Source: Corallococcus silvisoli | GTDB taxonomy: Bacteria; Myxococcota; Myxococcia; Myxococcales; Myxococcaceae | Direction: 5' to 3' | NCBI RefSeq assembly: GCF_009909145.1 | Contig: NZ_JAAAPJ010000005.1 | Coordinates: forward strand, 464,470-528,469 | DNA length: 64,000 bases | Part shown: positions 28,544 to 45,469 of the stretch, one piece after another | Numbering within the stretch: the first letter of the stretch is position 1 | Layout of the letters: every line of letters starts with the position of its first letter | Translations under genes and position numbers: made by a program | Notes under the pieces: model-generated | What the model was told of the DNA's origin: nothing | The model's input: the letters and a program-made list of their open reading frames with translations, nothing else | The model's database searches: none

Positions 28544-30262
28544 CTAGCAGTCCACCGGCCCTTTCAAGCCAGTGACCGTGGCTTCGATTTCTTCACACCC
28601 GCCCAGCGTCTGGGCGCCGTGGGCCGCCAGCTTGATGCCCAGCACGTCCCCCACCGCGACGTCCGCCACGGAGCGCACCACCCCTCCGTCCTTCTGTCGG
28701 AACGTCACCGCGTAGCCGCGCGACATCACCTTCAATGGGCTGAGGGCGTCCAGCCGTCCCCCCAAACGTCCGAAATGCGTCTGCGCGGACGCGAGCGCCC
28801 CTCGCTGGAGCTCCAGGAGCCGCGAGCGGGCCAGCGCCACCCTCGCCCGCTCGGACGCCACCCGCGCCGTGGGCGAGGCCCGCTGAAGGCCCAGCCGCGC
28901 GTCCGCCAGCGCGCCCCGCCGCCGGGTCACCCCCGCGCGCGCCGCCTCCGACAGGCGCCTGGCCAGCTTGAGCAGGTGCGCGCGCTGCTCGGACAGCCGC
29001 GTCTGGGGCCGCGCGCGCTGCAGCCGCTCCTGGAGGGCCCGCAGCGTCTCCCGGTGCTCGCGCGTCCGGGGGCGCAGCACGCGCATCATGGCCTCCACCT
29101 GTTCCGACAGGTGCAGCCGCTGCTGGTTCACCGCGCGGCGCGGATCCGCGAGCCTCGCGCGCAGCTGTCCCTGGCGTTCGCGCAGCTCCAGCACCCGCCG
29201 CTCCATGGCGCGGCGCAGGCGCCCGGACTGCGTGGCCAGGGTCAGCTCCAGGTCCGCCAGCACCGGCGCCAGCCGCTCCGCCGCCGCGCTGGGCGTGGGC
29301 GCGCGCAGGTCCGCGACGAAGTCCGCGATGGTGAAGTCAATCTCATGGCCGATGGCGGACACCACCGGCACGGGCGAGGCGAAGATGGCGCGCGCCACCC
29401 GCTCCTCGTTGAACGTCCAGAGGTCCTCCACGGAGCCTCCGCCGCGCGTCACCACGATGACGTCCACGTCGGTGCGCGCGAGCCGCTCGATGGCCCGCGC
29501 CACGTCCTCCGCGGAGCCCTCGCCCTGCACGCGCGCGTCCGCGAGCAGCACGCCCAGCCGGGGGTTGCGCGAGTGCAGCACGCGCAGGAAGTCCTGGAGC
29601 GCCGCGCCGGTGCGGCTGGTGACGACGCCGATGCGCCGGGGCAGGAACGGCACCGGACGCGGAGGCCGCACGCGCCTGTCGCCGATGAGGCCCTCGGCCG
29701 CCAGCCGCTGCTTGAGCTGTTCGAACGCGAGCGCCAGCGCGCCCTCACCCACCGGCTCCAGCCGGGAGATGATGAGGCTGTAGCGGCCCTGCGGCTCGTA
29801 CAGGTCCACGCTGCCCTCGGCCAGCACCTCCATGCCGTCGCGCAGCGCGAAGCGGATCCGCGCCGCCATGGACGCCCACACCTTCGCGTCGATGGAGGCG
29901 TCCACGTCCTTGAGCGTGAAGTACCAGTGGCCGCGCGCGTTGGCGCCCCGGAAGCTGGACACCTCGCCGCGCACCAGCACGCGCGGGAAGCGCGACTCCA
30001 CCGTCTGTTTGATCTGCCGGGTGAGCTCTCCCACCGTCAGCACCGTGCGCTCGGGGCGCGGCGGCGGGAGCGGAGCGGAGGGCGGAGCCGGAGCGAGGTC
30101 CGCCTTCGGCGCGGGCGGAGGGGCCTCGGGCGTCTTCCTGCCAGAGGCGGAGGCCTTCGCCGGAGAGGCGGGGCGCAGGGGCGGCAGGAGCGACGTGCCG
30201 AAGAGGTCGCCCTGCCCCGGCTCGTCGGCCGGGGGCGGCTCCAGCCCCTTGCGCTTCTTCAT
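28544..30262 (-). CDS. xseA: Exodeoxyribonuclease VII large subunit
   Basis: OB-fold N-terminus LTVGELTRQIKQTVESRFPRVLVRGEVSSFRGANARGHWYFTLKD. The catalytic region is RIGVVTSRTGAALQDFL...VIVVTRGGGSVEDLWTFNEE. Start at MKKRKG (ATG at 30262), overlapping the stop of the upstream FHA gene (ATGA). Confidence 0.85.
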   Translation of the reverse strand: MKKRKGLEPPPADEPGQGDLFGTSLLPPLRPASPAKASASGRKTPEAPPPAPKADLAPAPPSAPLPPPRPERTVLTVGELTRQIKQTVESRFPRVLVRGEVSSFRGANARGHWYFTLKDVDASIDAKVWASMAARIRFALRDGMEVLAEGSVDLYEPQGRYSLIISRLEPVGEGALALAFEQLKQRLAAEGLIGDRRVRPPRPVPFLPRRIGVVTSRTGAALQDFLRVLHSRNPRLGVLLADARVQGEGSAEDVARAIERLARTDVDVIVVTRGGGSVEDLWTFNEERVARAIFASPVPVVSAIGHEIDFTIADFVADLRAPTPSAAAERLAPVLADLELTLATQSGRLRRAMERRVLELRERQGQLRARLADPRRAVNQQRLHLSEQVEAMMRVLRPRTREHRETLRALQERLQRARPQTRLSEQRAHLLKLARRLSEAARAGVTRRRGALADARLGLQRASPTARVASERARVALARSRLLELQRGALASAQTHFGRLGGRLDALSPLKVMSRGYAVTFRQKDGGVVRSVADVAVGDVLGIKLAAHGAQTLGGCEEIEATVTGLKGPVDC

Positions 30263-32013
30263 CGCGACAGCTTCTCGACCCAGCCCTGGGCCTTGCCGTG
30301 CAGCTCGTCGTCGGGCGGCGTCATCGCGACGACGTCGCGGAACTTGGGCAGCGCGTCCTCCGGGCTGGAGTCCTTGATGGCGTAGGCCTGGAAGTACAGG
30401 TCCTTCGCCTTGGCCTTGAGGTCGTTGACGATGTTGGCCGCGCCGGTGTGGGCCGGGTCGGCCTGGAGCGCGCGGCGTGCGAACTCCATCGCGCGAGACC
30501 ACTGGCCGGCGGCCTTCGCGCCCGCGGCGCTCTTGTAATAGATGGTCGCCGCGCGGGTGCCCGCGTTGCGCGCCATCTTGCTGCCGCGGCCGTCGGTGAT
30601 GTCCTTGTCCAGCGCCAGCAGCCGGCTCAGGCCCTTGGCGTCCAGGTCCTCCAGCTTCTTGTAGAGGTTCCCGAACTCCGTCACCTGCCCCATGAGCTGC
30701 TTGCACTGGGGTGCCTTGGCCGCGCACGCATTGAGGATGGCCACCGCGCCAGAGACGTCACCGTCGCGGAAGCGGTCCACCGCGGGCTCCCACGGCTTGG
30801 GAGCGGCGGCCACGCGGACGGGATCCGGACGGGTCATGTCCGCGATGACGCGCGCGGCCTCGTCGTTGATCAGCTTGCCATCGCGGTGGTCCGGGAACGT
30901 CGCGAGCACGTCGTCGGTGATGGCCTTGGCCCGCTGCACCGCCTCCAGCTGCCGCATGTCCAGCTGCTGCTTGGCTTCCTTGGTGCGCTTGTCGGCGGCG
31001 TCCACCAGGTTCTTGCGCGCCGTCTTCACCTGCTCATAGAGCTGGGTGTCGCTGCTCACCTTGTCGATGGCCGCCTTCGCGTTGGCGAGCTCACCCTTGC
31101 CCAGGGCCGTCTGCGCGGTGGCCAGGTGCCCCTGGTTGGGGATCTCCCGCTCCGCCGCCTTCAGGTAGTCCTCCACGCCAGGGTAGTCCGGAGCCTGTGA
31201 GTGCAGCTCCTCCAGCTTCGCCTTGGCCTGCGCCCACTGGCCCTCGCGCACCAGGTTCTTGGCCTCCTGGAAGAGGCCCCCCAGCTGCTCGCGGTACTGG
31301 CGCTGCTCGGCCTCGATGCGGCCCTGCTCCTCCTGCTGGTGCCGCATGCGCGAGCGCGCGACGCCCAGGCCTGCGAAGAGCACCACCAGCACGCCCACGG
31401 CGGCGAGCTTGATCCGCATCCGCTTGCGCAGGACCTCCGGCGTCAGCTCCGCGGCCGCGGACGCGCGCGAGGTCTGCGGGCGCGAACGGCCCTCGCCTCG
31501 GGGAGCGGGACGGGCAGGCACCGCGCCGGAGCCGCGGCCACCCGCCGCGGACGGACGGGGACGCGGGCCGGAGGGGGCCTGCACCTTGGCGGTGCTGTTG
31601 GCGGTGTCCTCGTATCGCAGCTCGGAGTCGCCCAGCGTGATGACGTCGCCGTTGGCCAGCAGCGTCTCCTCGCTGATGGGCTCGCCGTTGAGGATGGTGC
31701 CGTTGCCCGACCCCATGTCACTGACCATCCAGCCAGCGGACTCCTTGCGCAGCGTCACGTGCTTGCGGGAGACGGACGTATCCTGGAGGCAGATGGGGTT
31801 GTCGGTGGACCGGCCGACCGTGTACTCGGCGTCGGAGAGCGCGAACTCCTCGCCCTCGCTGGGACCGGCGATGACCACGAGCTTCGCGGGGCGTGCCGCG
31901 GCGGCACCGGCGGTCGACCGGCGGACCGGGGCGCGCTGCCCGGTCCCGGAGGAGGGCGTACCGGACGTAGGCCTTCGGCGGGCGGGAGGAGGGGCGTTCG
32001 ACATGGATTTCAC
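30259..32013 (-). CDS. FHA domain protein with single TM segment and periplasmic TPR-like/helical domain
   Basis: FHA core YTVGRSTDNPICLQDTSVSRKHVTLRKESAGWMVSDMGSGNGTILNGEPI...GDVITLG. TM segment IKLAAVGVLVVLFAGLGVA. A C-terminal helical repeat region of about 330 aa. Confidence 0.7.
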   Translation of the reverse strand: MKSMSNAPPPARRRPTSGTPSSGTGQRAPVRRSTAGAAAARPAKLVVIAGPSEGEEFALSDAEYTVGRSTDNPICLQDTSVSRKHVTLRKESAGWMVSDMGSGNGTILNGEPISEETLLANGDVITLGDSELRYEDTANSTAKVQAPSGPRPRPSAAGGRGSGAVPARPAPRGEGRSRPQTSRASAAAELTPEVLRKRMRIKLAAVGVLVVLFAGLGVARSRMRHQQEEQGRIEAEQRQYREQLGGLFQEAKNLVREGQWAQAKAKLEELHSQAPDYPGVEDYLKAAEREIPNQGHLATAQTALGKGELANAKAAIDKVSSDTQLYEQVKTARKNLVDAADKRTKEAKQQLDMRQLEAVQRAKAITDDVLATFPDHRDGKLINDEAARVIADMTRPDPVRVAAAPKPWEPAVDRFRDGDVSGAVAILNACAAKAPQCKQLMGQVTEFGNLYKKLEDLDAKGLSRLLALDKDITDGRGSKMARNAGTRAATIYYKSAAGAKAAGQWSRAMEFARRALQADPAHTGAANIVNDLKAKAKDLYFQAYAIKDSSPEDALPKFRDVVAMTPPDDELHGKAQGWVEKLSR

Positions 32014-32040: not shown

Positions 32041-35000
32041 CTAAAGCTCATGCTCATAGGCTTTTTCCAGCGCGAGATTGTGGCAGCGATGCTCGGTGGT
32101 AGGGAAGCGTCTCCGTACGTCTTCCAAGGTCGCGACCGCATCGCGTCGGCTGCGGAACTGAACCGCCCGCTGGAATTGCATCATCAACTGACCGCAGCGG
32201 TGGTCCAGCTCCGTTGAAATCTGGGAGATCCGCTCCCGTACGTCCTCGTACAGGTCCGGCTTCTCGTCGAGCGCTTCCAGGGTGATCCACGCGGCCCGGT
32301 ACTCCCGCCACGCCTTGAAGAGGTTCTCCGCGCCCACATCCTTGAGCTCGTAGAACCGGGCTCCCGCCCGCGCGGACTCCCGAGCCGAAGCGACCAGCTG
32401 ATCCGGCGGCGCCTCGGGTACCGGGATGATCTCCAGCCGGAGGTTCCAGATGCGCCACCGCTCACGGCCGGGCGGATTCAGGGCGTTGTCGAAGAGGAGC
32501 TGGTTGTTCGCGTTGCGGCGCAGGAGGCTGGGGGGAAGGACCTGCTCCAGCTCGCGCTCGGCGGTCTGGGCCGTGTCGGGAGGGACCCAGCCCAGGGACA
32601 CGCCGTTGAGGGAGAGGTTCACCTCATCCCGGGAGATGTCACTCGCCTGGTAGTGCAGCACGGCCACCGCGCGTGTGGGGGACACGAAGCGGAAGTCGAA
32701 GAGCTTGTCGTCGGCGTGGGCCCAACGCACGCCATCGCCCAGGCCGAAGGAGTCCGTCACCGGCTCCAACCCCAGCTTGAACGGCTCACGGCCCGGGAGC
32801 CGGAGGCCCGCGGGGGCCACGGAGACCAGGAGGGCCAGCAACGCCAGCACGCTCAACACCCCGAGCGACGCGAAGCCGATGCGCCGAGGCAGCGACTGAC
32901 GCTGCCAGAAGAGGAGGAACTTGCCGTGCAACGACCGGCCCAGCTGACGCCGCTGCCGGGCCTTGTCGGCGGCGGATGAGGGCGCGACCTTCGCGACGAC
33001 GGTGATGGGTCCCGCGGGCACGGGCTGCGAGGAGGAAGCCTCCAGGTCGTTGACGGGCTCCGTGGTGTCGCCATCCGCCTCTGGTCGAGGATGGAGCGCC
33101 AGCGCGCGGACCTCGCCCGGTAGCAGCCCGGGATCCAGCACCGCGGGCGAAGCGCCCGGAGGCCGGCGCACGAAGGTCACCGGATCCGGCGGAGGGGGCG
33201 GAACCGACGACCCCCAGGCGGCCGACGGTGGCACACCACCCTGGTCGCGGCCGACCGCGGTCACCAGCTCGGGCGAGTCGGGCTCGGCAGGCGAGCCCCA
33301 GGACGACGGTGACACACCGCCCTGGTCGCGGCCGACCGCCGTCACCAGCTCGGGCGAGTCGGGCTCGGCGGGCGAGCTCCAGGACGACGGTGACACACCG
33401 CCCTGGTCGCGGCCCACGAAGGTCACCGGCTCTGGCGAAGGGGGCCCAACGGGCGCACCCCAGGCCGACGGGGGAGCCAACGCGGGAGGCCTGGCCCCAG
33501 GCTCATCCTGGCCCACGAAGGTCACCAGCTCTTCGGCCTCCGCGGGAGGGCCGGAGGGGACTTCGTCGTCCTGACCCACGAAGGTCGCCGGCTCATCGGT
33601 GCCGTTCGTGGGCAGGGCCCCGCTGTGGCGTACGGGCGGAGCGACGAGCGGGCTGACGGGAGTGATGGGCCGGAGGTCGAGCATGGTCCGCTCCTCCGGC
33701 TCATCCATCGTCGATGCGGGGAGCATGGACGGGGCGATGTGCGGGGACGGCTCGGCGACGAGGGATGGGACGTCCGGCGTCGCCGGGATCGCCATCAGCG
33801 TGCGTTCCTCGGGTTCATCGAATCCCGCGAGGGGCAGTTCCGGTGGTGGCGGGAAGCCGGGCTCCGGCGATTCCACGGTGGGAATCGCCATCAGCGTGCG
33901 CTCCTCGGGTTCGTCCGGATCCACCGGGGACAGATCCACGGGAGAAGTCAGGAGGCCGGCGACAGGGGCCTCCCAACCGCGGGGCGCGGAAGCAGGAGGA
34001 GGCGCCTGGGGTGGAGCGACCGGCTGCGGAGGCACGGCGGCCACGACGTTCCGGGGTTCCGGCGTGCGGCCCTGGGTCGGAGTCGAAGCCGCCGGTACGT
34101 TCCTTCGCGGTGCGGACGAGGGCGAAGCAGCGCTGTCCGCGTCACGAGGTTCAGAGAGCGTCGCCGTCGAGGACGCGCGTGCGGCGCCACGCCCCAGATC
34201 GGGACGATTGAGCGCGGGTGCGCCGACCTCGGGCAAGCCAGGGATGGCCTTTCGCCGAGGGGACGCTCCTGGCTGAGGAGGGCCCGACACAGCAGCGCCG
34301 AGCACGGGAGGCTTCGGCAGGACAGGCGCGGCGGAGGCTCCCACCCCGGACACTTCCAGCGCCGTGGAACGGGCCTGCGCGGCGACCCCGGCTGGAACAA
34401 CCGCCAACGACGGACTCCTGCCCGCCGACGAGGCCGCGCCCAGCCCGCCTCCCGACGAGGAGGACCTCCCCGGTGTCGAAGCGCCGACCGGCTGCGGACC
34501 TGGTGCGGAGGGCCTTCCCGATGACGAGCCATCGACGGCTGGCGATCCAGGCCCCGAGGCCCGGGCCTCGGAGGCTCCCCCCGGAGCAGGCGCAACCGGT
34601 CCCCTGTTTGGCGAGGAAGCCCCCAGGATCGGAGGCCCAACGGTGGCCTTGTTCGACGTGGGCGCATCGACCGCGGGCAAACCTGACGCCGACGCCTTCC
34701 CCGAACCGGGCCCCAACACGGGAGGCCCCACGGGAGCACGTCCCGATACCGTGGCTCCCGACATCGAGGCTCCCGGCGCGGAAGCCCCCAACACGGGAGG
34801 CCCCACGGGAGCACGTCCCGATACCGTGGCTCCCGACATCGACGCTCCCGGCGAGGAAGCCCCCAGCATGGGAGGTCCCACGGGAGCACGTCCCGATACC
34901 GTGGCCCCCGACATCGACGCTCCCGGCGCGGAAGCCCCCAATACGGGAGGCCCCCCAGGAATGCGTCCTGGCGCGGACGCACCTGCCGCAGCAGAGCCCG

Positions 35001-35781
35001 AAGCCCCCAGCACCGGAGGTCCCGCGGGAGCACGTCCCGCCGCGGACGCGCCTGCCGCAGCAGAGCCCGAAGCCCCCAACACGGGACCACCCGTCGGTGC
35101 CCGATTGGCCGTGGACGTACCCGCGGACGGAGGACCCGAAGCCCCCAACACGGGACCACCCGTCGGTGCCCGATTGGCCGTGGACGTACCCGCCGAAGCT
35201 CCCGGAACTCCCCCCCCCATCGAGGGAGCGCCCGTGGGTGCCCTGTTCGGCGTCGCGGCGCCTGCCCCTGGTTGAGCCGGAGTGGGAGCGCCGACCGCCG
35301 GAAGATCCGGAGCGGAGGGGCGCTTGGGCGGCGGCACCCGGACCTCGGGCTGCTTCGGCGTGGCGGGCGGAGCTTCCGACATCGCCCCACCCTTCGCGGC
35401 GGGCACGGCCATCCCGGGCCTCGGCGCGAACGCCGGACGCGCCATCGCGGGCATGGACTGCTGGTAGCTCGTGGGCGCCGCTTCGATCTCCGCGAGCGCG
35501 GCCTGCTCCACGCCCTGGGGCGACACCCGTGCGTGCGGCGGCGCGAGCACCCTGCGGATGGGCCGGGTCACATCGTCATCGTCGTCCGGCGGCATCCACA
35601 CGAAGGTGAACTCCACCGGTCCGACGGTGATGCGATCCCCGTCACGCAGCTGCTTCTCGCCCGCCAGCGGCTGGCCGTTGAGCTGCGTGCCGTTCGCGCT
35701 GCCTACGTCCTCGGCGAAGTAGCGCCCATCCCGCGCCGTGATGCGTGCATGCCGCCGGGAGACACCATGGTCATGCAGCAC
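32041..35781 (-). CDS. Giant FHA-domain protein (>=1246 aa) with 25-aa tandem repeats, TM segment and C-terminal globular domain; annotated from GTG but true start probably about 100 nt upstream
   Basis: FHA core (VKIGRTSENDLV)LHDHGVSRRHARITARDGRYFAEDVGSANGTQLNGQPL...GDRITVG. Residues 196-358 are P/G/A-rich repeats (GASMSGATVSGRAPVGPPVLGAS). Downstream are a Pro-rich region, a TM helix (IGFASLGVLSVLALLALLVSVA) and a conserved C-terminal domain of about 300 aa. The first half of the FHA domain (PILLTITQGLQVGRELAFEQAEVKIGRTSENDLV) is encoded in-frame upstream of the annotated GTG, with no ATG/GTG/TTG available. Confidence 0.7.
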   Translation of the reverse strand: MLHDHGVSRRHARITARDGRYFAEDVGSANGTQLNGQPLAGEKQLRDGDRITVGPVEFTFVWMPPDDDDDVTRPIRRVLAPPHARVSPQGVEQAALAEIEAAPTSYQQSMPAMARPAFAPRPGMAVPAAKGGAMSEAPPATPKQPEVRVPPPKRPSAPDLPAVGAPTPAQPGAGAATPNRAPTGAPSMGGGVPGASAGTSTANRAPTGGPVLGASGPPSAGTSTANRAPTGGPVLGASGSAAAGASAAGRAPAGPPVLGASGSAAAGASAPGRIPGGPPVLGASAPGASMSGATVSGRAPVGPPMLGASSPGASMSGATVSGRAPVGPPVLGASAPGASMSGATVSGRAPVGPPVLGPGSGKASASGLPAVDAPTSNKATVGPPILGASSPNRGPVAPAPGGASEARASGPGSPAVDGSSSGRPSAPGPQPVGASTPGRSSSSGGGLGAASSAGRSPSLAVVPAGVAAQARSTALEVSGVGASAAPVLPKPPVLGAAVSGPPQPGASPRRKAIPGLPEVGAPALNRPDLGRGAARASSTATLSEPRDADSAASPSSAPRRNVPAASTPTQGRTPEPRNVVAAVPPQPVAPPQAPPPASAPRGWEAPVAGLLTSPVDLSPVDPDEPEERTLMAIPTVESPEPGFPPPPELPLAGFDEPEERTLMAIPATPDVPSLVAEPSPHIAPSMLPASTMDEPEERTMLDLRPITPVSPLVAPPVRHSGALPTNGTDEPATFVGQDDEVPSGPPAEAEELVTFVGQDEPGARPPALAPPSAWGAPVGPPSPEPVTFVGRDQGGVSPSSWSSPAEPDSPELVTAVGRDQGGVSPSSWGSPAEPDSPELVTAVGRDQGGVPPSAAWGSSVPPPPPDPVTFVRRPPGASPAVLDPGLLPGEVRALALHPRPEADGDTTEPVNDLEASSSQPVPAGPITVVAKVAPSSAADKARQRRQLGRSLHGKFLLFWQRQSLPRRIGFASLGVLSVLALLALLVSVAPAGLRLPGREPFKLGLEPVTDSFGLGDGVRWAHADDKLFDFRFVSPTRAVAVLHYQASDISRDEVNLSLNGVSLGWVPPDTAQTAERELEQVLPPSLLRRNANNQLLFDNALNPPGRERWRIWNLRLEIIPVPEAPPDQLVASARESARAGARFYELKDVGAENLFKAWREYRAAWITLEALDEKPDLYEDVRERISQISTELDHRCGQLMMQFQRAVQFRSRRDAVATLEDVRRRFPTTEHRCHNLALEKAYEHEL
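34708..35196 (-). repeat. Intragenic tandem repeat array: degenerate 75-78 bp units, with three near-identical 75-bp copies at about 34708-34932
   Basis: The unit GGAGGCCCCACGGGAGCACGTCCCGATACCGTGGCTCCCGACATCGA(G/C)GCTCCCGGCG(C/A)GGAAGCCCCCAA(C/T)ACG recurs with fewer than 5 mismatches. The encoded repeat on the minus strand is GASMSGATVSGRAPVGPPVLGASAP. Confidence 0.8.
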
Positions 35782-35887
35782 CAGGTCATTCTCCGAGGTC
35801 CGGCCGATCTTGACCTCGGCCTGCTCGAAGGCGAGCTCCCGTCCAACCTGGAGCCCCTGGGTGATGGTGAGCAGGATGGGCAGAGGA

Positions 35888-36778
35888 CTAGCCCCCGACG
35901 TTCCCGAACATGAACTGGAACACGATGGGCCCGAAGAGCACCATGAACACCGTCGGGAAGATGCAGGCGATGAGCGGGAAGAGCATCTTCACCGGCGCCT
36001 CGCCGGCCAGCTTCTCCGCGCGCTGCGTGCGGTCGATGCGCATCTGCGTGGACTGGATGCGCAGCACCTTGCCCAGGCTCGTGCCCATCTTGTCCGCCTG
36101 GATCAGCGCCGTGACGAAGGTCGTCAACGACGGCAGGTCCACGCGAGCAATCATGCTCTTGAGCCCTTCCTCACGCGTCTTGCCCATCTTGAGCTGCTTG
36201 AGCACCAGCTGCAGCTCCTCGCGCAGCGGCCCCTGGCGGCCCTTCTCCACCACCTTCGCGAGCGCACCCGTGAAGTCCATGCCCGCTTCCACCGACAGCG
36301 TGAGCAGGTCCAGGTTGTACGGAAGCGCGCGGCTGATGGCCAGGTGGCGGCGCTTCACCTGATCGTTCAACCAGATGAGCGGATAGAAGAGCCCCAGCAG
36401 CATCACCAGCAGCGACCAGGCCAGGTTGCCGCCAAGGCCGTTGACGACGAAGAGGCCCGCCAGCAGGGCAAAGAAGGCGCTGACTTCCTGCAGCGCCATG
36501 ATGTCCTCGGGCTTGTACTGCGACGGCTCGCCCGCCTTGATCAGCTTGCGGCGCGTCTTGGACTCGTAGCCCGGCCACATGAAGCGCCGGTTCATCGCGC
36601 CCAGCTTGCGGACGGCGACGGAGCCCGCGCCCTTCACGCCACCCGCGGACTCGTCACGTACCTCCGTGAGGAAGCGTTCGAGGACGTTGGTGTAGAGGCC
36701 GACGCCCAGGAACGCCACCGCGCCCGCAGTGAGCAGTGCCGAGCCGCCCATCAGCAAGAATGTCAGGAAATCCTGCAC
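35888..36778 (-). CDS. tadC: Tad/Flp pilus assembly inner-membrane platform protein TadC (T2SSF domain)
   Basis: GspF/TadC-type T2SSF domain (LPYNLDLLTLSVEAGMDFTGALAKVVEKGRQGPLREELQLVLKQLKMGKTREEGLKSM) flanked by TM helices. 296 aa. Confidence 0.85.
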   Translation of the reverse strand: MQDFLTFLLMGGSALLTAGAVAFLGVGLYTNVLERFLTEVRDESAGGVKGAGSVAVRKLGAMNRRFMWPGYESKTRRKLIKAGEPSQYKPEDIMALQEVSAFFALLAGLFVVNGLGGNLAWSLLVMLLGLFYPLIWLNDQVKRRHLAISRALPYNLDLLTLSVEAGMDFTGALAKVVEKGRQGPLREELQLVLKQLKMGKTREEGLKSMIARVDLPSLTTFVTALIQADKMGTSLGKVLRIQSTQMRIDRTQRAEKLAGEAPVKMLFPLIACIFPTVFMVLFGPIVFQFMFGNVGG

Positions 36779-36791
36779 GGTGCGCCTCGAT

Positions 36792-37637
36792 TCAGATGTC
36801 GATGTTGACGATGCGCCGGATGATGAGGATGCCCATGATCTCCATGATGGCGATGATGGTCACCAGGATGTAGCCGAAGATGTGGTTCATCATCGGCTCC
36901 ATCAGGTCCGGACGCATGTAGTTGAGGACCAGGCCCAGCACCGCAGGCATGGCCGCGACGATCCACCCTTGAAGCTTGCCCTGGGACGTCAGCGCGTCGA
37001 TCTTGCCTTCCAGACGGAAGCGCTCGCGGATCACCGTGGAGATGGTCTCGAACATCTCCGCCATGTTGCCGCCCAGCTGGCGCGCGATGTTGGTGGACAC
37101 CACCACCAGCTCCAGGTCATCGCTGCCCACCCGGCGGCCCATGTTGACGAGCGCCTCTTCCAGGGGAACGCCCAGCTTCACTTCCTTCACGAAGAGGCCG
37201 AACTCCTGTGACAGGGGCGGCATCGCCTCGCGCGCCACGTGCTCGATGGCCTGCGGGAACGTGAGACCCGCCTTGAACGCGTTGGCCATGGCCTGCAGCG
37301 CGTCCACCAACTGCACGTTGAACTTCTTGATGCGGCGCGTGCGGTAGTGCTTCACGAGCAGCATCGGCAGGAAGAAACCGAAGATGGTCGCCAGCACCGC
37401 CAGGATGGGGTTGAAGACGATGTAGCTGAGGATGCCCAGGAGGCACATGCACGCGATGTTGAGGATCAACATCTGCCGCGCGTCGATGAAGAGGAACATG
37501 TCGCTCAAGTCGTTCATCGACTTGGCGACGTAGCGCTCCTGGTACTGCTCATACGCCTTCGACAGGACGCTGAAGATCACCAGGCTGAAGAAGAACACCG
37601 AGCCGGTGACGAGAAGGAGGACGATACCTGCGAGCAT
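36792..37637 (-). CDS. tadB: Tad/Flp pilus assembly inner-membrane platform protein TadB (T2SSF domain)
   Basis: T2SSF domain (LVDALQAMANAFKAGLTFPQAIEHVAREAMPPLSQEFGLFVKEVKLGVPLEEALVNMGRRVGSDDLELVV) with N- and C-terminal TM helices. 281 aa, 13 nt upstream of tadC. Confidence 0.85.
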   Translation of the reverse strand: MLAGIVLLLVTGSVFFFSLVIFSVLSKAYEQYQERYVAKSMNDLSDMFLFIDARQMLILNIACMCLLGILSYIVFNPILAVLATIFGFFLPMLLVKHYRTRRIKKFNVQLVDALQAMANAFKAGLTFPQAIEHVAREAMPPLSQEFGLFVKEVKLGVPLEEALVNMGRRVGSDDLELVVVSTNIARQLGGNMAEMFETISTVIRERFRLEGKIDALTSQGKLQGWIVAAMPAVLGLVLNYMRPDLMEPMMNHIFGYILVTIIAIMEIMGILIIRRIVNIDI

Positions 37638-37715: not shown

Positions 37716-38531
37716 CTACGGCGAGCCAGCCGCCGACTTGTCGCTGCCGCCACCCTTGATGATCTGGATGATCTCCCGGCGCTTCTGCTCCAGCACGCGG
37801 GTGCGCTCGCCGGACAGCAGCGTGCTGATGGTCGCGCGGCCGCGCTCCTCGATGAGGTCCACGTCGTCCTCGTTGCGCAGCGACAGGGTCAGCTGTCCGA
37901 GCTCCGCCGCCAGCACCAGGATCTCCGCCTCTTCCGGCAGCACCATCAGCGACACGTTGTTGTAGTCGCGCTGGTTCTCCGGGATGAGGTTGATGTTCGT
38001 GGTGCCGGTGATCTTGCCCGTGGCGACCACGATGATGTTCTGCAGCAGCGTCACCGCGACGCTCTCATCCGTCTGCGGATCGCGGAACGTGCCGATGATG
38101 TCCACGTGGTCGTTGGGACGGATCCACCCGCCCACGGCCGTGGTCAGCTTCGCCTCGATGGTGATGGCGCGCGCCTTCTTCTGCACCTTCGTCGACAGGC
38201 GCTCGGCGGCCTTCGTCGTCTCGAACTGGCTCCAGAGGATGGGGTCGCCGGCCTGCAGCGCCACGAGCACCTTCTGGTTCACGATGTAGTTGGCGGAGTC
38301 CGGCTTCACCACCGACGAGGTGACGAACTGCTCCGGCACGGAGCGCTGGGAGATCATCTCGTACGTGATGACCGACCCCTCGGGCATGTCCTGGCCCGCC
38401 ACCACCACGGGCACCAGGTTCCACCCGCGACGCACATCCGATTCCTTCTTCTTGATGGCCGAGTAGGCCACGATGCCGGCGAGCAAACCGAGCACCAGCG
38501 CGACGACGAGCGGGGTCTTACCCTTCAACAT
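37716..38531 (-). CDS. cpaB: Flp pilus assembly protein CpaB/RcpC (SAF domain)
   Basis: N-terminal TM anchor LVVALVLGLLAGIVAYSAI, then a SAF-like and RcpC beta region (VPVVVAGQDMPEGSVITYEMI...). 271 aa. RBS GGAGGA located 7 nt upstream. Confidence 0.85.
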   Translation of the reverse strand: MLKGKTPLVVALVLGLLAGIVAYSAIKKKESDVRRGWNLVPVVVAGQDMPEGSVITYEMISQRSVPEQFVTSSVVKPDSANYIVNQKVLVALQAGDPILWSQFETTKAAERLSTKVQKKARAITIEAKLTTAVGGWIRPNDHVDIIGTFRDPQTDESVAVTLLQNIIVVATGKITGTTNINLIPENQRDYNNVSLMVLPEEAEILVLAAELGQLTLSLRNEDDVDLIEERGRATISTLLSGERTRVLEQKRREIIQIIKGGGSDKSAAGSP

Positions 38532-39101: not shown

Positions 39102-40547
39102 CTATTCCGTGGGCGCCGGGGCGCTGGCGGGCAGCTTCGTGCTGGCGGCGGGCGCCATGATGGGCGCGGCCTTGCGCATGCGGCGCTGGGCCATCTGGGC
39201 GGCGCCGGACTCGGGGGCTTCGTGGACGACCTGGGCGCAGACGACCGCGGCGGCGTCGCTCTGGCCCTGAGCGGACTCCGAGTCACACAGCCGCGAGAGC
39301 AGGTCCAGCCGCTCACCGCCACTGGGTCCGGCCGCGAGCGCGGCGCGCAGCAGCTGGGCCTCCCGGACGCGATCTCCCTGGCTCGCGGCGGCTTGCGCCT
39401 GACGGGCCAGCTCGCGCGACGTCATCGCTCCGGCCGGGGGCTGCTTCTCCATGGGCTTGGGCTTCGCGGCCTCCGCGCGTGCCGATTCCTTCACCGGTTC
39501 GGCGACCGCGCGGGCCGGGCCCGGGGCCAGCTTCGAGGCGCTGACCGCGCCGGTGGCGGAAGGCGTCGCGGGCGCGGCCTGCGCCATGGGCGCCGAGGCC
39601 ACCGGCGCCGGAGGCGGCGGCGACGCGGCCTCTCCCATGGCGGCATCGTCGGACGCGAGCCCGCGCCCGTAGGACGCACCGCCCAGCCGCAGTGAGTCGC
39701 GCTTCGCGACCTGGGCCTTGTCCGTGCCTCCCCCTGCCTGGTCGAACGCGGAGTCCGAGGTGGAGCGTGCGTCCTTCCCGCCATACACGGCGCCGGCCGC
39801 CTCTTCCTTCGGGGCCTGTGCCGGCTCGAGCGCCGCGAACTCGCCGTCCGCGTCCTGGGCCTTGGACAGCTTCTTCGTGGGCGCGGGCCCCTCGCGTCGG
39901 CGCTCCAGCATCGCGCCTCCACCGCCCGCGTTCATCCAATCCGACGGACGGCCCGCGGCATTGCCCTTGAGCTGCGCATCCGCCTGATTCCGTGCGGGCG
40001 CGTCTTTCAGCGCCTCGGAGGCCGGAGCCGCCGCCAGCAGGTCATCGCTCCGCGGGGTGTAACTCCTCCCCATCGGCGCGGGCGCGGAGGCGGGCGCGGA
40101 CTTCGGCTCGCGCTTGCCCAGCGTGCGGGTCTCATCCTCCGCCGGGGCCCTCGCGGGGCTCGCGGTCTTCTGCGCCAGGTTCGGCTCCAGGTGGAGGCCC
40201 TCGTTGACCTCCAGCGACAGGATGCCGAAGGTGCTCACCGTGGCCAGGCCCACCGCGGGCAAGAGCCAGCGGCGCCAGCGCGAGGGCTTCGGCTCCGGCC
40301 CCGCGGAGGCGCGGCGCGCGGACTGCTGGGCGTACGCGAGCAGCGACTCCAGGCCCGCGTCCGGCGCGGGTTCGGTCGACAGCTGCGCCATGGTGGTGCG
40401 CACGCCGCGGATGTCCGCCAGCGCCTTGGAACAGCGCACACAGCCCTGGACGTGCTGCTCCAACGCCTGGGCCTCCGTCGCCGGAAGCTCGCCGTAGGCG
40501 AAGTCGAGGAGCCGGTCCTCGTGCGCGTGAGCATTCTGGGCACTCAT
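39102..40547 (-). CDS. Anti-sigma factor (zf-HC2 type), single-pass membrane protein with long low-complexity periplasmic region
   Basis: Start MSAQNAHAHEDRLLDFAYGELP. Zinc-finger anti-sigma motif HVQGCVRCSKALADI (H-x3-C-x2-C). TM segment WLLPAVGLATVSTFGILSL. The start overlaps the stop of the upstream ECF sigma gene (ATGA). The 155-aa N-terminal extension in the ORF track is rejected. Confidence 0.7.
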   Translation of the reverse strand: MSAQNAHAHEDRLLDFAYGELPATEAQALEQHVQGCVRCSKALADIRGVRTTMAQLSTEPAPDAGLESLLAYAQQSARRASAGPEPKPSRWRRWLLPAVGLATVSTFGILSLEVNEGLHLEPNLAQKTASPARAPAEDETRTLGKREPKSAPASAPAPMGRSYTPRSDDLLAAAPASEALKDAPARNQADAQLKGNAAGRPSDWMNAGGGGAMLERRREGPAPTKKLSKAQDADGEFAALEPAQAPKEEAAGAVYGGKDARSTSDSAFDQAGGGTDKAQVAKRDSLRLGGASYGRGLASDDAAMGEAASPPPPAPVASAPMAQAAPATPSATGAVSASKLAPGPARAVAEPVKESARAEAAKPKPMEKQPPAGAMTSRELARQAQAAASQGDRVREAQLLRAALAAGPSGGERLDLLSRLCDSESAQGQSDAAAVVCAQVVHEAPESGAAQMAQRRMRKAAPIMAPAASTKLPASAPAPTE

Positions 40548-41191
40548 CCCGCCACCGTCCTTCCATCCTCCGACAGGTCGCCATCCACACCCAGCTCGCC
40601 CAGGCGGCGGCGCAAGCCCTCCAGCGCGTAACGCATCCGGCTCTTCACCGTGTTTTCGGACACGCCCGTCACCTCGGCGATCTCCTTGAACGGGATGCCG
40701 CTGTACTCCCGCAGCACGAACACCTCGCGCTGCTCCTCCGGCAGCCCCGCGAGGGCCCGCTCCAGCAGGGGCCGCAGGCGCGCGTTGTGCGCGCCGCGCT
40801 CCGGACTGGCACCGGCGTCCGGCAGCCCCTCGCCCAACGGACGTCCCTCGTCCCCGTCCGCACCGGCCGCGGGGGCCTCCAGGGACGTCGCCTGGCGGTA
40901 GCTCTCTTTGCGCGTGCTGTCCACGCAGAGGTTCCTCGCGATGGTGTACAGCCAGGTCGTGAACCGGGCCTTCGGCGCGTATTCCCGGGCACTGCGGACC
41001 ACCTTGAGCCACGTCTCCTGCAGCACGTCCTCCGCCCGCGCCCGGTGCCCGACGAAGCGCAGGATGAAGTTGAACACCGGCGCGCGGTGCTTTCGCACCA
41101 GCGCCTCGAACGCACGCGCGTCTCCCGCCTGGAAGGCGAGCATCAGATGCTCGTCTGAGGTTTCGGGTGCCAAACTTCCCCCAGTGCCCAT
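40544..41191 (-). CDS. ECF-type RNA polymerase sigma-70 factor
   Basis: Sigma70 region 2 (FEALVRKHRAPVFNFILRFVGHRARAEDVLQETWLKVVRS...FTTWLYTIARNLCVDSTR) and region 4 (LPEEQREVFVLREYSGIPFKEIAEVTGVSENTVKSRMRYALEGLRRRL). The start is ambiguous (41191 or 41224). Confidence 0.8.
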   Translation of the reverse strand: MGTGGSLAPETSDEHLMLAFQAGDARAFEALVRKHRAPVFNFILRFVGHRARAEDVLQETWLKVVRSAREYAPKARFTTWLYTIARNLCVDSTRKESYRQATSLEAPAAGADGDEGRPLGEGLPDAGASPERGAHNARLRPLLERALAGLPEEQREVFVLREYSGIPFKEIAEVTGVSENTVKSRMRYALEGLRRRLGELGVDGDLSEDGRTVAG

Positions 41192-43702: not shown

Positions 43703-43706
<4 letters not shown>

Positions 43707-44704
43707 TTCTGGGCCAGCTCCTCCAGGAACTCCGCCTCCTGGATGAGCCCCTTGCGGATGAGCAGGCGGATGAGGCTCGCGACCATGCGCGCGGGCTTCA
43801 CCTTCTCCGTGTCCAGGCTGGCCTCCTCGCCGCGAGAGATGCGGTCGATGTCGTCCAGCACCGCCAGGTCCTCCTCGGAGAAGTCCGGCTTGGGCGTGAG
43901 CGCCACCGACGGCTTCACGCCCTGCGCGGCGCCGCCGAAGAGCACCACCGGCACGCGCGGCTTGTTGGGATCCGCGTCCGCCTCCGAGGGCGGCGGCGGC
44001 GGCGGGGGCGGAGGCCTCGCGGCGGCGGGGGGCGGCGGGGGCCTGGCGGCGGGCCGGGGCTTGGAGCCCAGGATGTCCTCCAGCACCTCCGCGCCGTCCG
44101 CGGAGGACTCGTGGGGCGGCGGCGGGGGCAGGTCCCAGTCCAGAGGCGGAGGCGCGGGCGGGCGCGCCGACGAGGGACGCGCGGCGGCGGGCGCCGGCGT
44201 CGACGGCAGGATGTCCGGCGAATCGTCCTCGTCCATGTCCATCGGTTCTGCCTCCACGATGTCCAGGGGCTCTCCCCGGCCGCGCGCGAGCGCCTGCTCC
44301 AGGTCGTCTGGAGCGGCGACAAAGACCTTGAGCTGCTTGCGCAGTTGGAAGCGCAGCTGGTCCACCAGGTTCAGGTTGCCCGGGTCCTCCACCGCCACGT
44401 GGAGCTTCTCGCTGCGGCCGTCCTGCTCCAGCGCGAAGAGCAGCACGCGCTGCTCGGTCTGGAAGTCCATGGACACCAGCGAGGACACCGCGTGCGGGAT
44501 GTACTCGGGGATCTCCACGAAGGGCAGCTCGTGCTGCGCCGCCAGCGCCCGCGCGATGTCCCGGCCGGTGCACAGGCCCATGGACACCAGCACCTCGCCC
44601 AGCTTGCGGCCCTGGCCGCGCCGTCCGGAGGCCAATGCCTGCTTCACCTGCTCGTCCGTGACCACGCCCGCCTGGACGAGGAGTTCACCAATCTTCTTGC
44701 GCAT
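43703..44704 (-). CDS. GspE N-terminal (T2SSE_N / MshEN-like) domain protein with long Pro-rich tail
   Basis: [63 protein letters not shown] is the canonical T2SSE_N helical hairpin found at the N-terminus of GspE/MshE ATPases. No ATPase domain follows, only a P/A-rich low-complexity region of about 120 aa and a short C-terminal helix. Confidence 0.65.
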
Positions 44705-44713
44705 GGCCGGGGG

Positions 44714-45469
44714 CTACCGCTTGACCTTGGCGAGGTATTCCTCGCGGGAAAAAACGCCCTTCTCGATGAGCAGCTCCACCATGGCCTTGAGCGCCGCGAC
44801 CTCCTTGCGCTGCACGTCCTCCACGCTCTTGAGCAGCTCCGCGGGACTTCCGGAGGCCGCCGCGCGAGGCGCCTCCGCGGGAGGCGGCGGACGGGCCGGC
44901 GCGGGGGCGGGACGGGCGGGCGCGGACGCAGCGACCGCGGCGGCCGGGTCCAGGTCCTTGAGGTTCTTCACGACGGTGCGGCCCTGGGCGTCCACCACCT
45001 TGAAGTTGGTGTCCGCGTCCTCCAATTCCGCCGACTCCTCGTAGAGGCGCGCGAACGCCCGCGCCACGGACGTGCGCCCCGCCACGTTGGCCACGATGCG
45101 GCACTTGGACAGGGCCCGCAGCTCGTCCAGCACCCGCACGTTGAGCGGATCCGACATCGCGACCACCAGCGTCTTGCCGTCGTCGCGCAGCTGCAGGGGC
45201 ACGACAGAGAAGTCGCGCGCCGTCTGCGAGGGAATCTTGGCCTTCACGTGCGGCGGCACCGCCTGCACGGCGTCCAGGTTCACCGCCGGCATGCCGAGCT
45301 GCTTCGACAAGGCGCGCACGAGGATGTCCTCGGAGACGAGGTTCATCCGGACGAGGATCTCGCCCAGCTTCCCGCCCCACTTGGCCTGCTCGGCGAGCGC
45401 CGCCTTGAGCTGGCTCTCCTGCAGGACGTTCGCCTTGATCAGCAGTTCTCCAAGCTTGATCTGTGCCAT
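44714..45469 (-). CDS. GspE N-terminal (T2SSE_N / MshEN-like) domain protein, paralog
   Basis: MAQIKLGELLIKANVLQESQLKAALAEQAKWGGKLGEILVRMNLVSEDILVRALSKQLGMPAV carries the same T2SSE_N signature, followed by a second helical region and a P/A-rich linker. 9 nt upstream of its paralog. Confidence 0.65.
   Translation of the reverse strand: MAQIKLGELLIKANVLQESQLKAALAEQAKWGGKLGEILVRMNLVSEDILVRALSKQLGMPAVNLDAVQAVPPHVKAKIPSQTARDFSVVPLQLRDDGKTLVVAMSDPLNVRVLDELRALSKCRIVANVAGRTSVARAFARLYEESAELEDADTNFKVVDAQGRTVVKNLKDLDPAAAVAASAPARPAPAPARPPPPAEAPRAAASGSPAELLKSVEDVQRKEVAALKAMVELLIEKGVFSREEYLAKVKR

Follow-up and report, generated by a model that had tools for sequence, protein, structure and literature searches.

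The 64,000-nucleotide stretch of the Corallococcus silvisoli genome analysed in this work (contig NZ_JAAAPJ010000005.1, positions 464,470 to 528,469 of the forward strand), hereafter the window, harbors a gene coding for a giant FHA protein (32041..35883; 1280 codons from CTG plus the stop), located immediately downstream of a tadC/kilH-like gene. All the coordinates reported below are window positions, and the FHA gene, the tadC/kilH-like gene and their neighbours all lie on the minus strand. On the basis of the sequences compared, we consider it likely that the translation of the FHA gene begins at the CTG codon at 35883 (35881..35883) and that this event is probably coupled to the termination of kilH. 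This reading is based on the start codons of orthologous genes and on the presence of CTG at 13 tadC-FHA junctions. To judge from the same alignments, CTG is the ancestral state at this position across the Cystobacterineae (Myxococcaceae plus Archangiaceae) and no recent lesion.

The N-terminal half of the FHA domain

The absence of ATG, GTG and TTG in front of the FHA domain, which was the starting point of the original prediction, was confirmed by an in-frame walk from the GTG at 35781 to the first stop codon; indeed, this part of the frame embeds 69 sense codons, none of which is ATG, GTG or TTG, and then the TGA at 35991-35989. The upstream in-frame translation first proposed, LPILLTITQGLQVGRELAFEQAEVKIGRTSENDLV, is correct, and so are the positions of the three near-cognate codons then put forward as initiators (CTG 35883, ATC 35877, and CTG 35874); the open frame also contains ATC 35865, ATC 35808, and CTG 35784. 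The frame is open up to the TGA, as had been stated. However, the overlap with the tadC stop needs to be corrected: the upstream, tadC-like T2SSF open reading frame (ORF) terminates at the TAG at 35890-35888, and over the 3' end of tadC the open frame of the FHA gene is simply the +1 frame, which there carries no coding meaning of its own.

The ORF track starts the gene at the GTG at 35781 (35779..35781), and both domain profiles and structural modelling placed this codon in the middle of an FHA fold, in agreement with what had been suggested. The Pfam FHA profile is covered from position 13 to 67 (of 67) if the protein begins at this GTG, versus 1 to 67 from CTG 35883; the corresponding values for Yop-YscD_cpl are 31-91 and 2-91 (of 94). 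In the AlphaFold model of the N-terminal region (residues 1-138, from a 30-sequence alignment), GTG 35781 is residue 35 and the strands beta1 (residues 3-9), beta2 (16-19) and beta3 (23-27), whose predicted local distance difference test score (pLDDT) is about 93, are all encoded upstream of it; the same is true for Gly27-Arg28, two invariant residues that belong to the phosphothreonine pocket of the FHA domain. From CTG 35883, the full frame is intact (1280 uninterrupted codons) and the predicted N-terminal peptide would be (M)PILLTITQGLQVGR. It must be underlined that 34 codons without a canonical start are not rare by chance (P ~0.06, with ATG, GTG and TTG accounting for 7.8% of codon usage in the operon). 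The feature is borne out by homology, as shown by the domain and by the orthologs, and not by statistics.

It is very unlikely that the true start is GTG 35781 (or, in the relatives, the GTG of VKIGR) and that the FHA domain is a truncated remnant that does not bind phosphopeptides. This codon is the first canonical one in the frame, a GGAG is found about 9 nucleotides upstream, and MKIGR, MVLHD or MLHD is the annotated N-terminus of many orthologs in the databases. However, the 34 upstream codons, which specify beta1-beta3 and the invariant G10, G27, and R28, are conserved at the protein level across six genera, and the window does not possess the VKIGR GTG, exhibiting GTC 35814 instead. In addition, the truncated annotated starts differ from genome to genome and fall wherever a GTG or an ATG occurs, which is the scatter that gene callers limited to ATG, GTG, and TTG would give. 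The GTG start was rejected since it loses beta1-beta3 and Gly27-Arg28. The GGAG (35793-35796) lies within the conserved S-E-N-D-L-V codons, and internal initiation at GTG 35781 may, as far as the sequence suggests, give some N-terminally truncated isoform.

The start codon in orthologous loci

Besides the window, DNA was read at 20 orthologous loci, that is, 18 tadC-FHA junctions and two loci (L012 and L013) with no tadC detected upstream. A metagenome scan performed with the N-terminal FHA alignment yielded mostly unrelated FHA proteins among the matches listed, the usable ones being L011-L015 and L018. In the following, P0 is the codon aligned with CTG 35883 and P0+n the codon n positions downstream.

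The alignment of orthologs, indicated in the original prediction as the check to be performed, revealed CTG at P0 in 13 junctions (window counted), GTG in Myxococcus, and ATG in distant orthologs. The CTG is shared by the window with Corallococcus aberystwythensis, C. carmarthensis, and C. interemptor, Corallococcus sp. H22C18031201, Pyxidicoccus parkwaysis and P. caerfyrddinensis, Archangium gephyra and A. violaceum, Stigmatella sp. ncwal1, Hyalangium rubrum, and two metagenome contigs. A canonical start occupies P0 in eight orthologs: the annotated GTG start of Myxococcus hansupus and of two Myxococcus sp. (L008, L097, and L098), and the ATG start of five distant orthologs (L012-L015 and L018), in two of which the ATG and the tadC stop overlap (TGATG). 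A JGI ortholog protein (P0150) starts with VPILL. No ortholog was found in which a Met start aligned to GTG 35781 is accompanied by a truly truncated FHA domain; where the DNA was read, the truncated N-termini present in databases (such as MVLHD... and MKIGR...) turned out to be gene-caller artefacts due to the lack of a canonical start seen in the window.

The lack of an alternative canonical codon is not a peculiarity of the window: no canonical in-frame start lies between the upstream stop and the conserved domain in L001, L002, L004, L009, L011, and L092-L095 either. In L011, L093 (Stigmatella), and L094 (Hyalangium), a single codon separates the CTG from the tadC stop, which lies in the same frame (TAG GCC/GTC CTG); therefore, no start upstream of the CTG is possible in these three loci. 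Protein conservation among orthologs begins exactly at P0, and L5 is invariant or nearly so, ATG-start relatives included. The ratio of nonsynonymous to synonymous substitution rates (dN/dS), mostly 0.17-0.5 in pairs including the window, points to a protein-level constraint on the residues that immediately follow P0.

The comparison also bears on the possibility, which we regard as having almost no probability, that the missing start derives from an assembly or sequencing error or that the gene is a recent pseudogene that lost its ATG. Nothing but the missing canonical start speaks for it. On the contrary, the junction is base-for-base the same over about 120 nucleotides in three independently assembled Corallococcus species (C. 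aberystwythensis, C. carmarthensis, and C. interemptor), is near-identical in a fourth, divergent one (Corallococcus sp. H22C18031201), which also carries the CTG, and the CTG is found in five other genera as well. Hence, the sequencing error or frameshift considered in the original prediction finds no support in these junctions, and neither does a decaying gene, given the conservation of the first 34 codons and the unbroken 1280-codon frame.

It is unlikely, although not to the same extent, that the gene starts at another near-cognate codon, namely ATC 35865 (giving MTQGLQ..., with which many Corallococcus proteins begin in RefSeq), CTG 35874, or ATC 35877. Eight RefSeq proteins (P0001, P0002, P0004, P0011, P0012, P0014, P0015, and P0018) begin with MTQGLQ or MTRGLQ, P0005 begins with MLTITQG, RefSeq annotates the matching ATC as the start in H. 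rubrum, and an ATC at P0+6 is kept in every lineage read. However, ATC 35877 (P0+2) is replaced elsewhere by TTC, TTT, GTC, or TGC and CTG 35874 (P0+3) by CGT, CGG, or CAG, so that neither is a near-cognate in other genera; P0+4 switches between CTC and CTG among lineages. As for ATC 35865, a start at this codon would lose most of beta1 (residues 3-9, pLDDT 93), including the invariant L5, and the codon lies 26 nucleotides from the Shine-Dalgarno (SD)-like run described below. Moreover, a canonical start is found at none of these three positions in the orthologs, versus eight at P0. Thus, of the non-canonical initiation near the tadC stop originally proposed, the CTG at 35883 stands, on the basis of the alignment with GTG and ATG starts, of the 13 CTG junctions in six genera, and of the RefSeq calls, whereas ATC 35877 and CTG 35874 do not, being not conserved as near-cognates.

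Concerning the history of this codon, Stigmatella, Archangium, and Hyalangium belong to the Archangiaceae and Corallococcus to the Myxococcaceae; Pyxidicoccus and Myxococcus are likewise Myxococcaceae. The simplest scenario compatible with these sequences is a change from ATG to CTG before the split between Myxococcaceae and Archangiaceae, which would have been followed by a change from CTG to GTG in Myxococcus.

Initiation signals and probable coupling to kilH

The G-rich stretch that had been noticed upstream of the CTG was found at 35896-35892. This GGGGG (35892..35896) is an SD-like element placed inside the last tadC codons (Gly-Gly), with an 8-nucleotide spacer to the CTG, and forms a duplex of -8.6 kcal/mol with the generic anti-SD ACCUCCUUU, a sequence that may not correspond to the 16S 3' end of this host. 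With the same generic anti-SD, a G-rich or GGAGG element (-4.1 to -11.1 kcal/mol) was detected in the 22 nucleotides upstream of P0 at all the junctions examined except the distant L012. The TAG stop of the tadC/kilH-like gene (35888..35890) is located 4 nucleotides before the CTG; the gap between the tadC stop and P0 is 3-10 nucleotides in the CTG and GTG lineages and ranges from -1 to 10 in the orthologs. It has been reported that coupling requires a gap shorter than about 10-14 nucleotides and that it occurs preferentially between genes whose products are subunits of a heteromeric complex (PMC10666635). The two genes lie on the same strand with a gap of 4 nucleotides, within the overlap or gap of up to about 10 nucleotides by which coupled pairs are recognized (PMC10666635), and this geometry fits a translational coupling to kilH.

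According to the mechanism that we propose, the ribosome would be placed by the G-rich run at 35896-35892, within the final codons of the kilH/tadC-like gene, and the initiator tRNA would read CTG 35883 as fMet, starting the FHA gene. Since the CTG lies only 4 nucleotides past the TAG, initiation would probably be fed largely by ribosomes that have just completed KilH, through either termination-reinitiation or a locally coupled de novo initiation. In this way, a bitopic membrane protein with its N-terminal FHA domain complete would be produced, in low amounts linked to the synthesis of KilH. We infer all three elements of this scheme, that is, the decoding of CUG as a start, its coupling to kilH, and the low output; the low, KilH-dependent output is suggested by the weakness of CUG in E. 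coli, the discrimination exerted by IF3, which acts against non-canonical start codons (PMC2268962), and the coupling geometry.

A separate initiation event would not be required if recoding at the tadC stop gave rise to a KilH/TadC-FHA fusion, through a +1 frameshift on GGG GGC TAG in the window and through stop-codon readthrough where the two frames coincide. The FHA frame of the window is in fact the +1 frame of tadC and stays open through the 3' end of that gene, whose stop follows a G-run; furthermore, in L008, L011, L093, and L094 the two genes share the same frame, with the stop plus one or two codons between them. Nevertheless, we consider this fusion highly improbable, slightly more so than the GTG 35781 start. 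Depending on the lineage, P0 is offset from the frame of the tadC stop by 0, 1, or 2, with a gap from -1 to 10 nucleotides, and no single recoding mechanism fits all these arrangements. The codon before the stop is GGC, GGG, GGA, or GCC, most of which are unable to re-pair in +1; Myxococcus and the distant orthologs possess an ordinary GTG or ATG start at P0, exactly where protein conservation sets in. A programmed +1 frameshift of the prfB type was considered as well and was discarded on the same two features, the variable offset (0/1/2) and the identity of the last sense codons (GGC/GGG/GGA/GCC).

Some observations, however, weigh against initiation at CTG 35883. In the first place, ATC 35865 (P0+6) is universal and is a usual Ile codon, and codon conservation alone cannot exclude it. 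Secondly, the invariance of CTG at P0 is not significant, since 9 out of 37 invariant-Leu columns of tadC and FHA are all-CTG in eight lineages; for this reason, CTG conservation at P0 was not used as evidence. Thirdly, the FHA genes of L010, L091, and L096 could start within tadC, where a GTG or TTG lies in their frame a few codons before the CTG. These GTG and TTG codons occupy non-homologous positions and occur only in these three lineages, and each could be either a real alternative start or an artefact. Lastly, the folding of the RNA from -60 to +60 around the start gave no structure signal (z = 0.34), the nucleotide conservation of the junction among Corallococcus is unexceptional (0.98 versus 0.93 overall, with other tadC stretches reaching 1.00), and CUG would be a very weak initiator if the figure available for E. 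coli, rather than for myxobacteria, applies here, that is, 1-2% of AUG (10.1101/063800). As an annotation detail, the tadC-internal GTG or TTG is the annotated start in the three loci mentioned above (L010 2995-3030, L091 1495-1520, and L096 230-260), where it adds 5-8 nonconserved residues.

Initiation at CTG 35883 can also be compared with known cases. In Stigmatella sp. ncwal1 (GCA_028368975.1) and Corallococcus sp. H22C18031201 (GCA_019039035.1), the same gene occupies the same post-T2SSF position, with the CTG and an SD-like run; the window protein differs in having a linker about 800 residues longer. The infC gene of E. coli, coding for IF3, starts with AUU and is autoregulatory. It resembles the window gene in that a near-cognate start is kept in evolution and in the sensitivity of expression to IF3 fidelity, here a predicted one; it differs in the codon and in its autoregulation, whereas the window gene has a CUG without a shown regulatory loop, tightly next to an upstream stop. 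Termination-reinitiation coupled pairs (PMC10666635), as well as the M13 gene V/VII system (PMC2268962), share with the window the same-strand arrangement, a gap of a few nucleotides, an SD within the end of the upstream gene, and products plausibly belonging to one membrane complex. However, such pairs typically show ATG or GTG with a -4 or -1 overlap, and not a CUG with a +4 gap.

The FHA protein and Kil cluster II

The FHA fold (residues 3-96; 35596..35877) is supported by Pfam and by an AlphaFold 2 model with nine strands (pLDDT >90). From the CTG start, the Pfam FHA profile (PF00498) matches residues 24-88 with 74.7 bits over its full length and Yop-YscD_cpl (PF16697) residues 7-95 with 71 bits. 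G10, G27, R28, S42, R43, H45, S62, G65, and G88 are invariant, and the residues of the Gly-Arg, Ser-x-x-His, and Asn-Gly motifs typical of the family (G27, R28, S42, R43, H45, N64, and G65) are all invariant or nearly so. The domain is followed by a low-complexity linker rich in P, A, G, and S (33016..35556), containing tandem repeats of 69, 75, and 81 nucleotides and embedding the peptide motifs DEPEERTLMAIP (three to four copies) and PVTFVGQD / LVTAVGRDQGGV; repeated D-x-D-A-T-R-P-I motifs were observed in short-linker orthologs. The giant size of the window protein is due to the expansion of this linker in Corallococcus: orthologs from other genera are 460-560 residues long, those from Corallococcus 903-1083, and the window protein (1280) is the longest member seen. 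As a speculation from the sequence, the numerous FHA domains of the Kil system might recognize the Thr-x-x-I/L motifs of these linkers as phosphothreonine ligands.

Downstream of the linker, a 25-residue hydrophobic helix of the AlphaFold 2 model (32818..32892; residues 42-66 of the C-terminal domain) would span the membrane and precedes the conserved C-terminal domain (32044..32793). The last 324 residues (32044-33015) have no Pfam or NCBIfam family match, while this region has 115 homologs, with 28 invariant residues. In the AlphaFold 2 model (pLDDT 90), the transmembrane helix is followed by an eight-stranded beta-sandwich and a TPR-like five-helix bundle, and fold searches with the C-terminal domain retrieved only TPR and weak CBM6/35 and BcsB-like matches. 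To judge from this model, the C-terminal domain appears to be a periplasmic module of Tad-like Kil systems that has not been described so far. The overall plan recalls SctD/YscD/PrgH of type III secretion systems, which also possess an N-terminal cytoplasmic FHA-like domain, a single predicted transmembrane helix, and an extracytoplasmic domain; however, the predicted periplasmic part of the window protein is a beta-sandwich plus a TPR-like bundle, and not a set of ring-building alpha/beta motifs. A PrgH/SctD-like identity of the whole protein was discarded as far as the periplasmic part is concerned, since TIGR02500 scored 22 bits against a cut-off of 86 and fold searches revealed no ring-building motifs. 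Four proteins from Melittangium boletus, Archangium primigenium, and relatives (P0105, P0109, P0111, and P0115) share the C-terminal domain but have unrelated acidic or Pro-rich N-termini with no FHA Pfam match; these genes may be mis-called, or else loss or replacement of the FHA domain took place in their lineages.

The tadC/kilH-like gene (35888..36778) codes for an inner-membrane platform protein of 296 residues (T2SSF, PF00482, 66 bits), which is 82-97% identical to the T2SSF protein found at the same position in Myxococcus, Pyxidicoccus, and Corallococcus. It is preceded by a second T2SSF gene, tadB/kilG-like (36792..37637, PF00482), and by a cpaB/kilB-like gene with RcpC and SAF domains (37716..38531, PF16976 and PF08666). 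On the other side of the giant gene lies an FHA+TPR gene (30259..32013, Pfam), the counterpart of MXAN_4648, found in the same place in all related loci. The resulting order, CpaB-T2SSF-T2SSF-FHA-FHA/TPR-xseA, is the same in the Myxococcus, Pyxidicoccus, Archangium, Stigmatella, and Hyalangium loci. Further upstream of the cpaB-like gene (39102-41012 and 43703-45469), a quick Pfam scan detected a zf-HC2 (anti-sigma-type) motif in an ORF of 636 residues, as well as an ORF for an ABC ATPase and two with MshEN domains.

In M. xanthus, kil cluster II comprises MXAN_4652 (KilB), 4651 (KilG), 4650 (KilH), 4649 (an FHA protein described as 'PrgH-like'), and 4648 (FHA+TPR), according to the supplement of PMC8460266. 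From gene order and that gene table, the FHA gene of the window is the positional counterpart of MXAN_4649: it lies between kilB-kilG-kilH and the FHA+TPR gene, the C-terminal domain is shared, and so is the FHA-transmembrane helix-C-terminal domain architecture. The Myxococcus orthologs that were read, from genomes other than DK1622, are 79% identical over the FHA region and 60% over the C-terminal domain; they differ in their GTG start and in their length of about 490 residues, without the repeat expansion. In the papers searched, no MXAN_4649 mutant is described, its role in contact-dependent prey killing being a putative one, and literature searches retrieved nothing on MXAN_4649 or on CTG starts in Myxococcus.

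The start codon matters, first of all, for annotation. RefSeq places the start at the homologous CTG in Stigmatella sp. ncwal1 (L093) and Corallococcus sp. H22C18031201 (L095), both being calls of the pipeline, at a downstream CTG in A. violaceum and at an ATC in H. rubrum, even though the last two carry the P0 CTG, and, among sister genomes, at no fewer than four further positions. Within the family, RefSeq and JGI start calls fall at nine positions at least (database orthologs P0001-P0145), and the N-termini of about 130 database orthologs include MPILLTITQG, MLTITQG, MTITKG, MTQGLQ, MQQGKELLF, MKIGRTSEND, MGRTSEN, MVLHD, and MLHD. A large share of these orthologs starts within the FHA domain, which amounts to a large-scale mis-annotation, with at least four different N-termini in one genus. 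Two versions were also noticed within one organism, namely MPILLTITQG (P0146) and MTITQG (P0147), or MGYSLRISKG (P0148) and MRISKG (P0130). The right start is needed for constructs, N-terminal tags, or deletions of the MXAN_4649-family gene of the Kil predation machine, which is of the Tad-like pilus type.

As for its biological meaning, the case adds a new and deeply conserved instance to a phenomenon already described; RefSeq calls in two relatives had foreshadowed it in part, and no new mechanism is implied. It would be a comparatively well-supported instance, from sequence comparison, of a CUG initiation codon kept across two bacterial families beside a stop codon. We tentatively advance, as a suggestion that is rather unlikely to be true, that the CUG is a control device retained ever since Myxococcaceae and Archangiaceae shared an ancestor, making the synthesis of the FHA scaffold strictly dependent on kilH termination and hypersensitive to IF3 fidelity. 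If this were true, a low and fixed FHA:KilH ratio would result. The myxobacterial IF3 homologue, Dsg, affects development, as cited in PMC2268962; through it, the assembly of the Kil killing machine would be tied to the translational or physiological state of the cell. With the GTG of Myxococcus as a natural control, and given the genetic tractability of M. xanthus, this gene would lend itself well to studying whether the stoichiometry of envelope-machine subunits is set by near-cognate starts.

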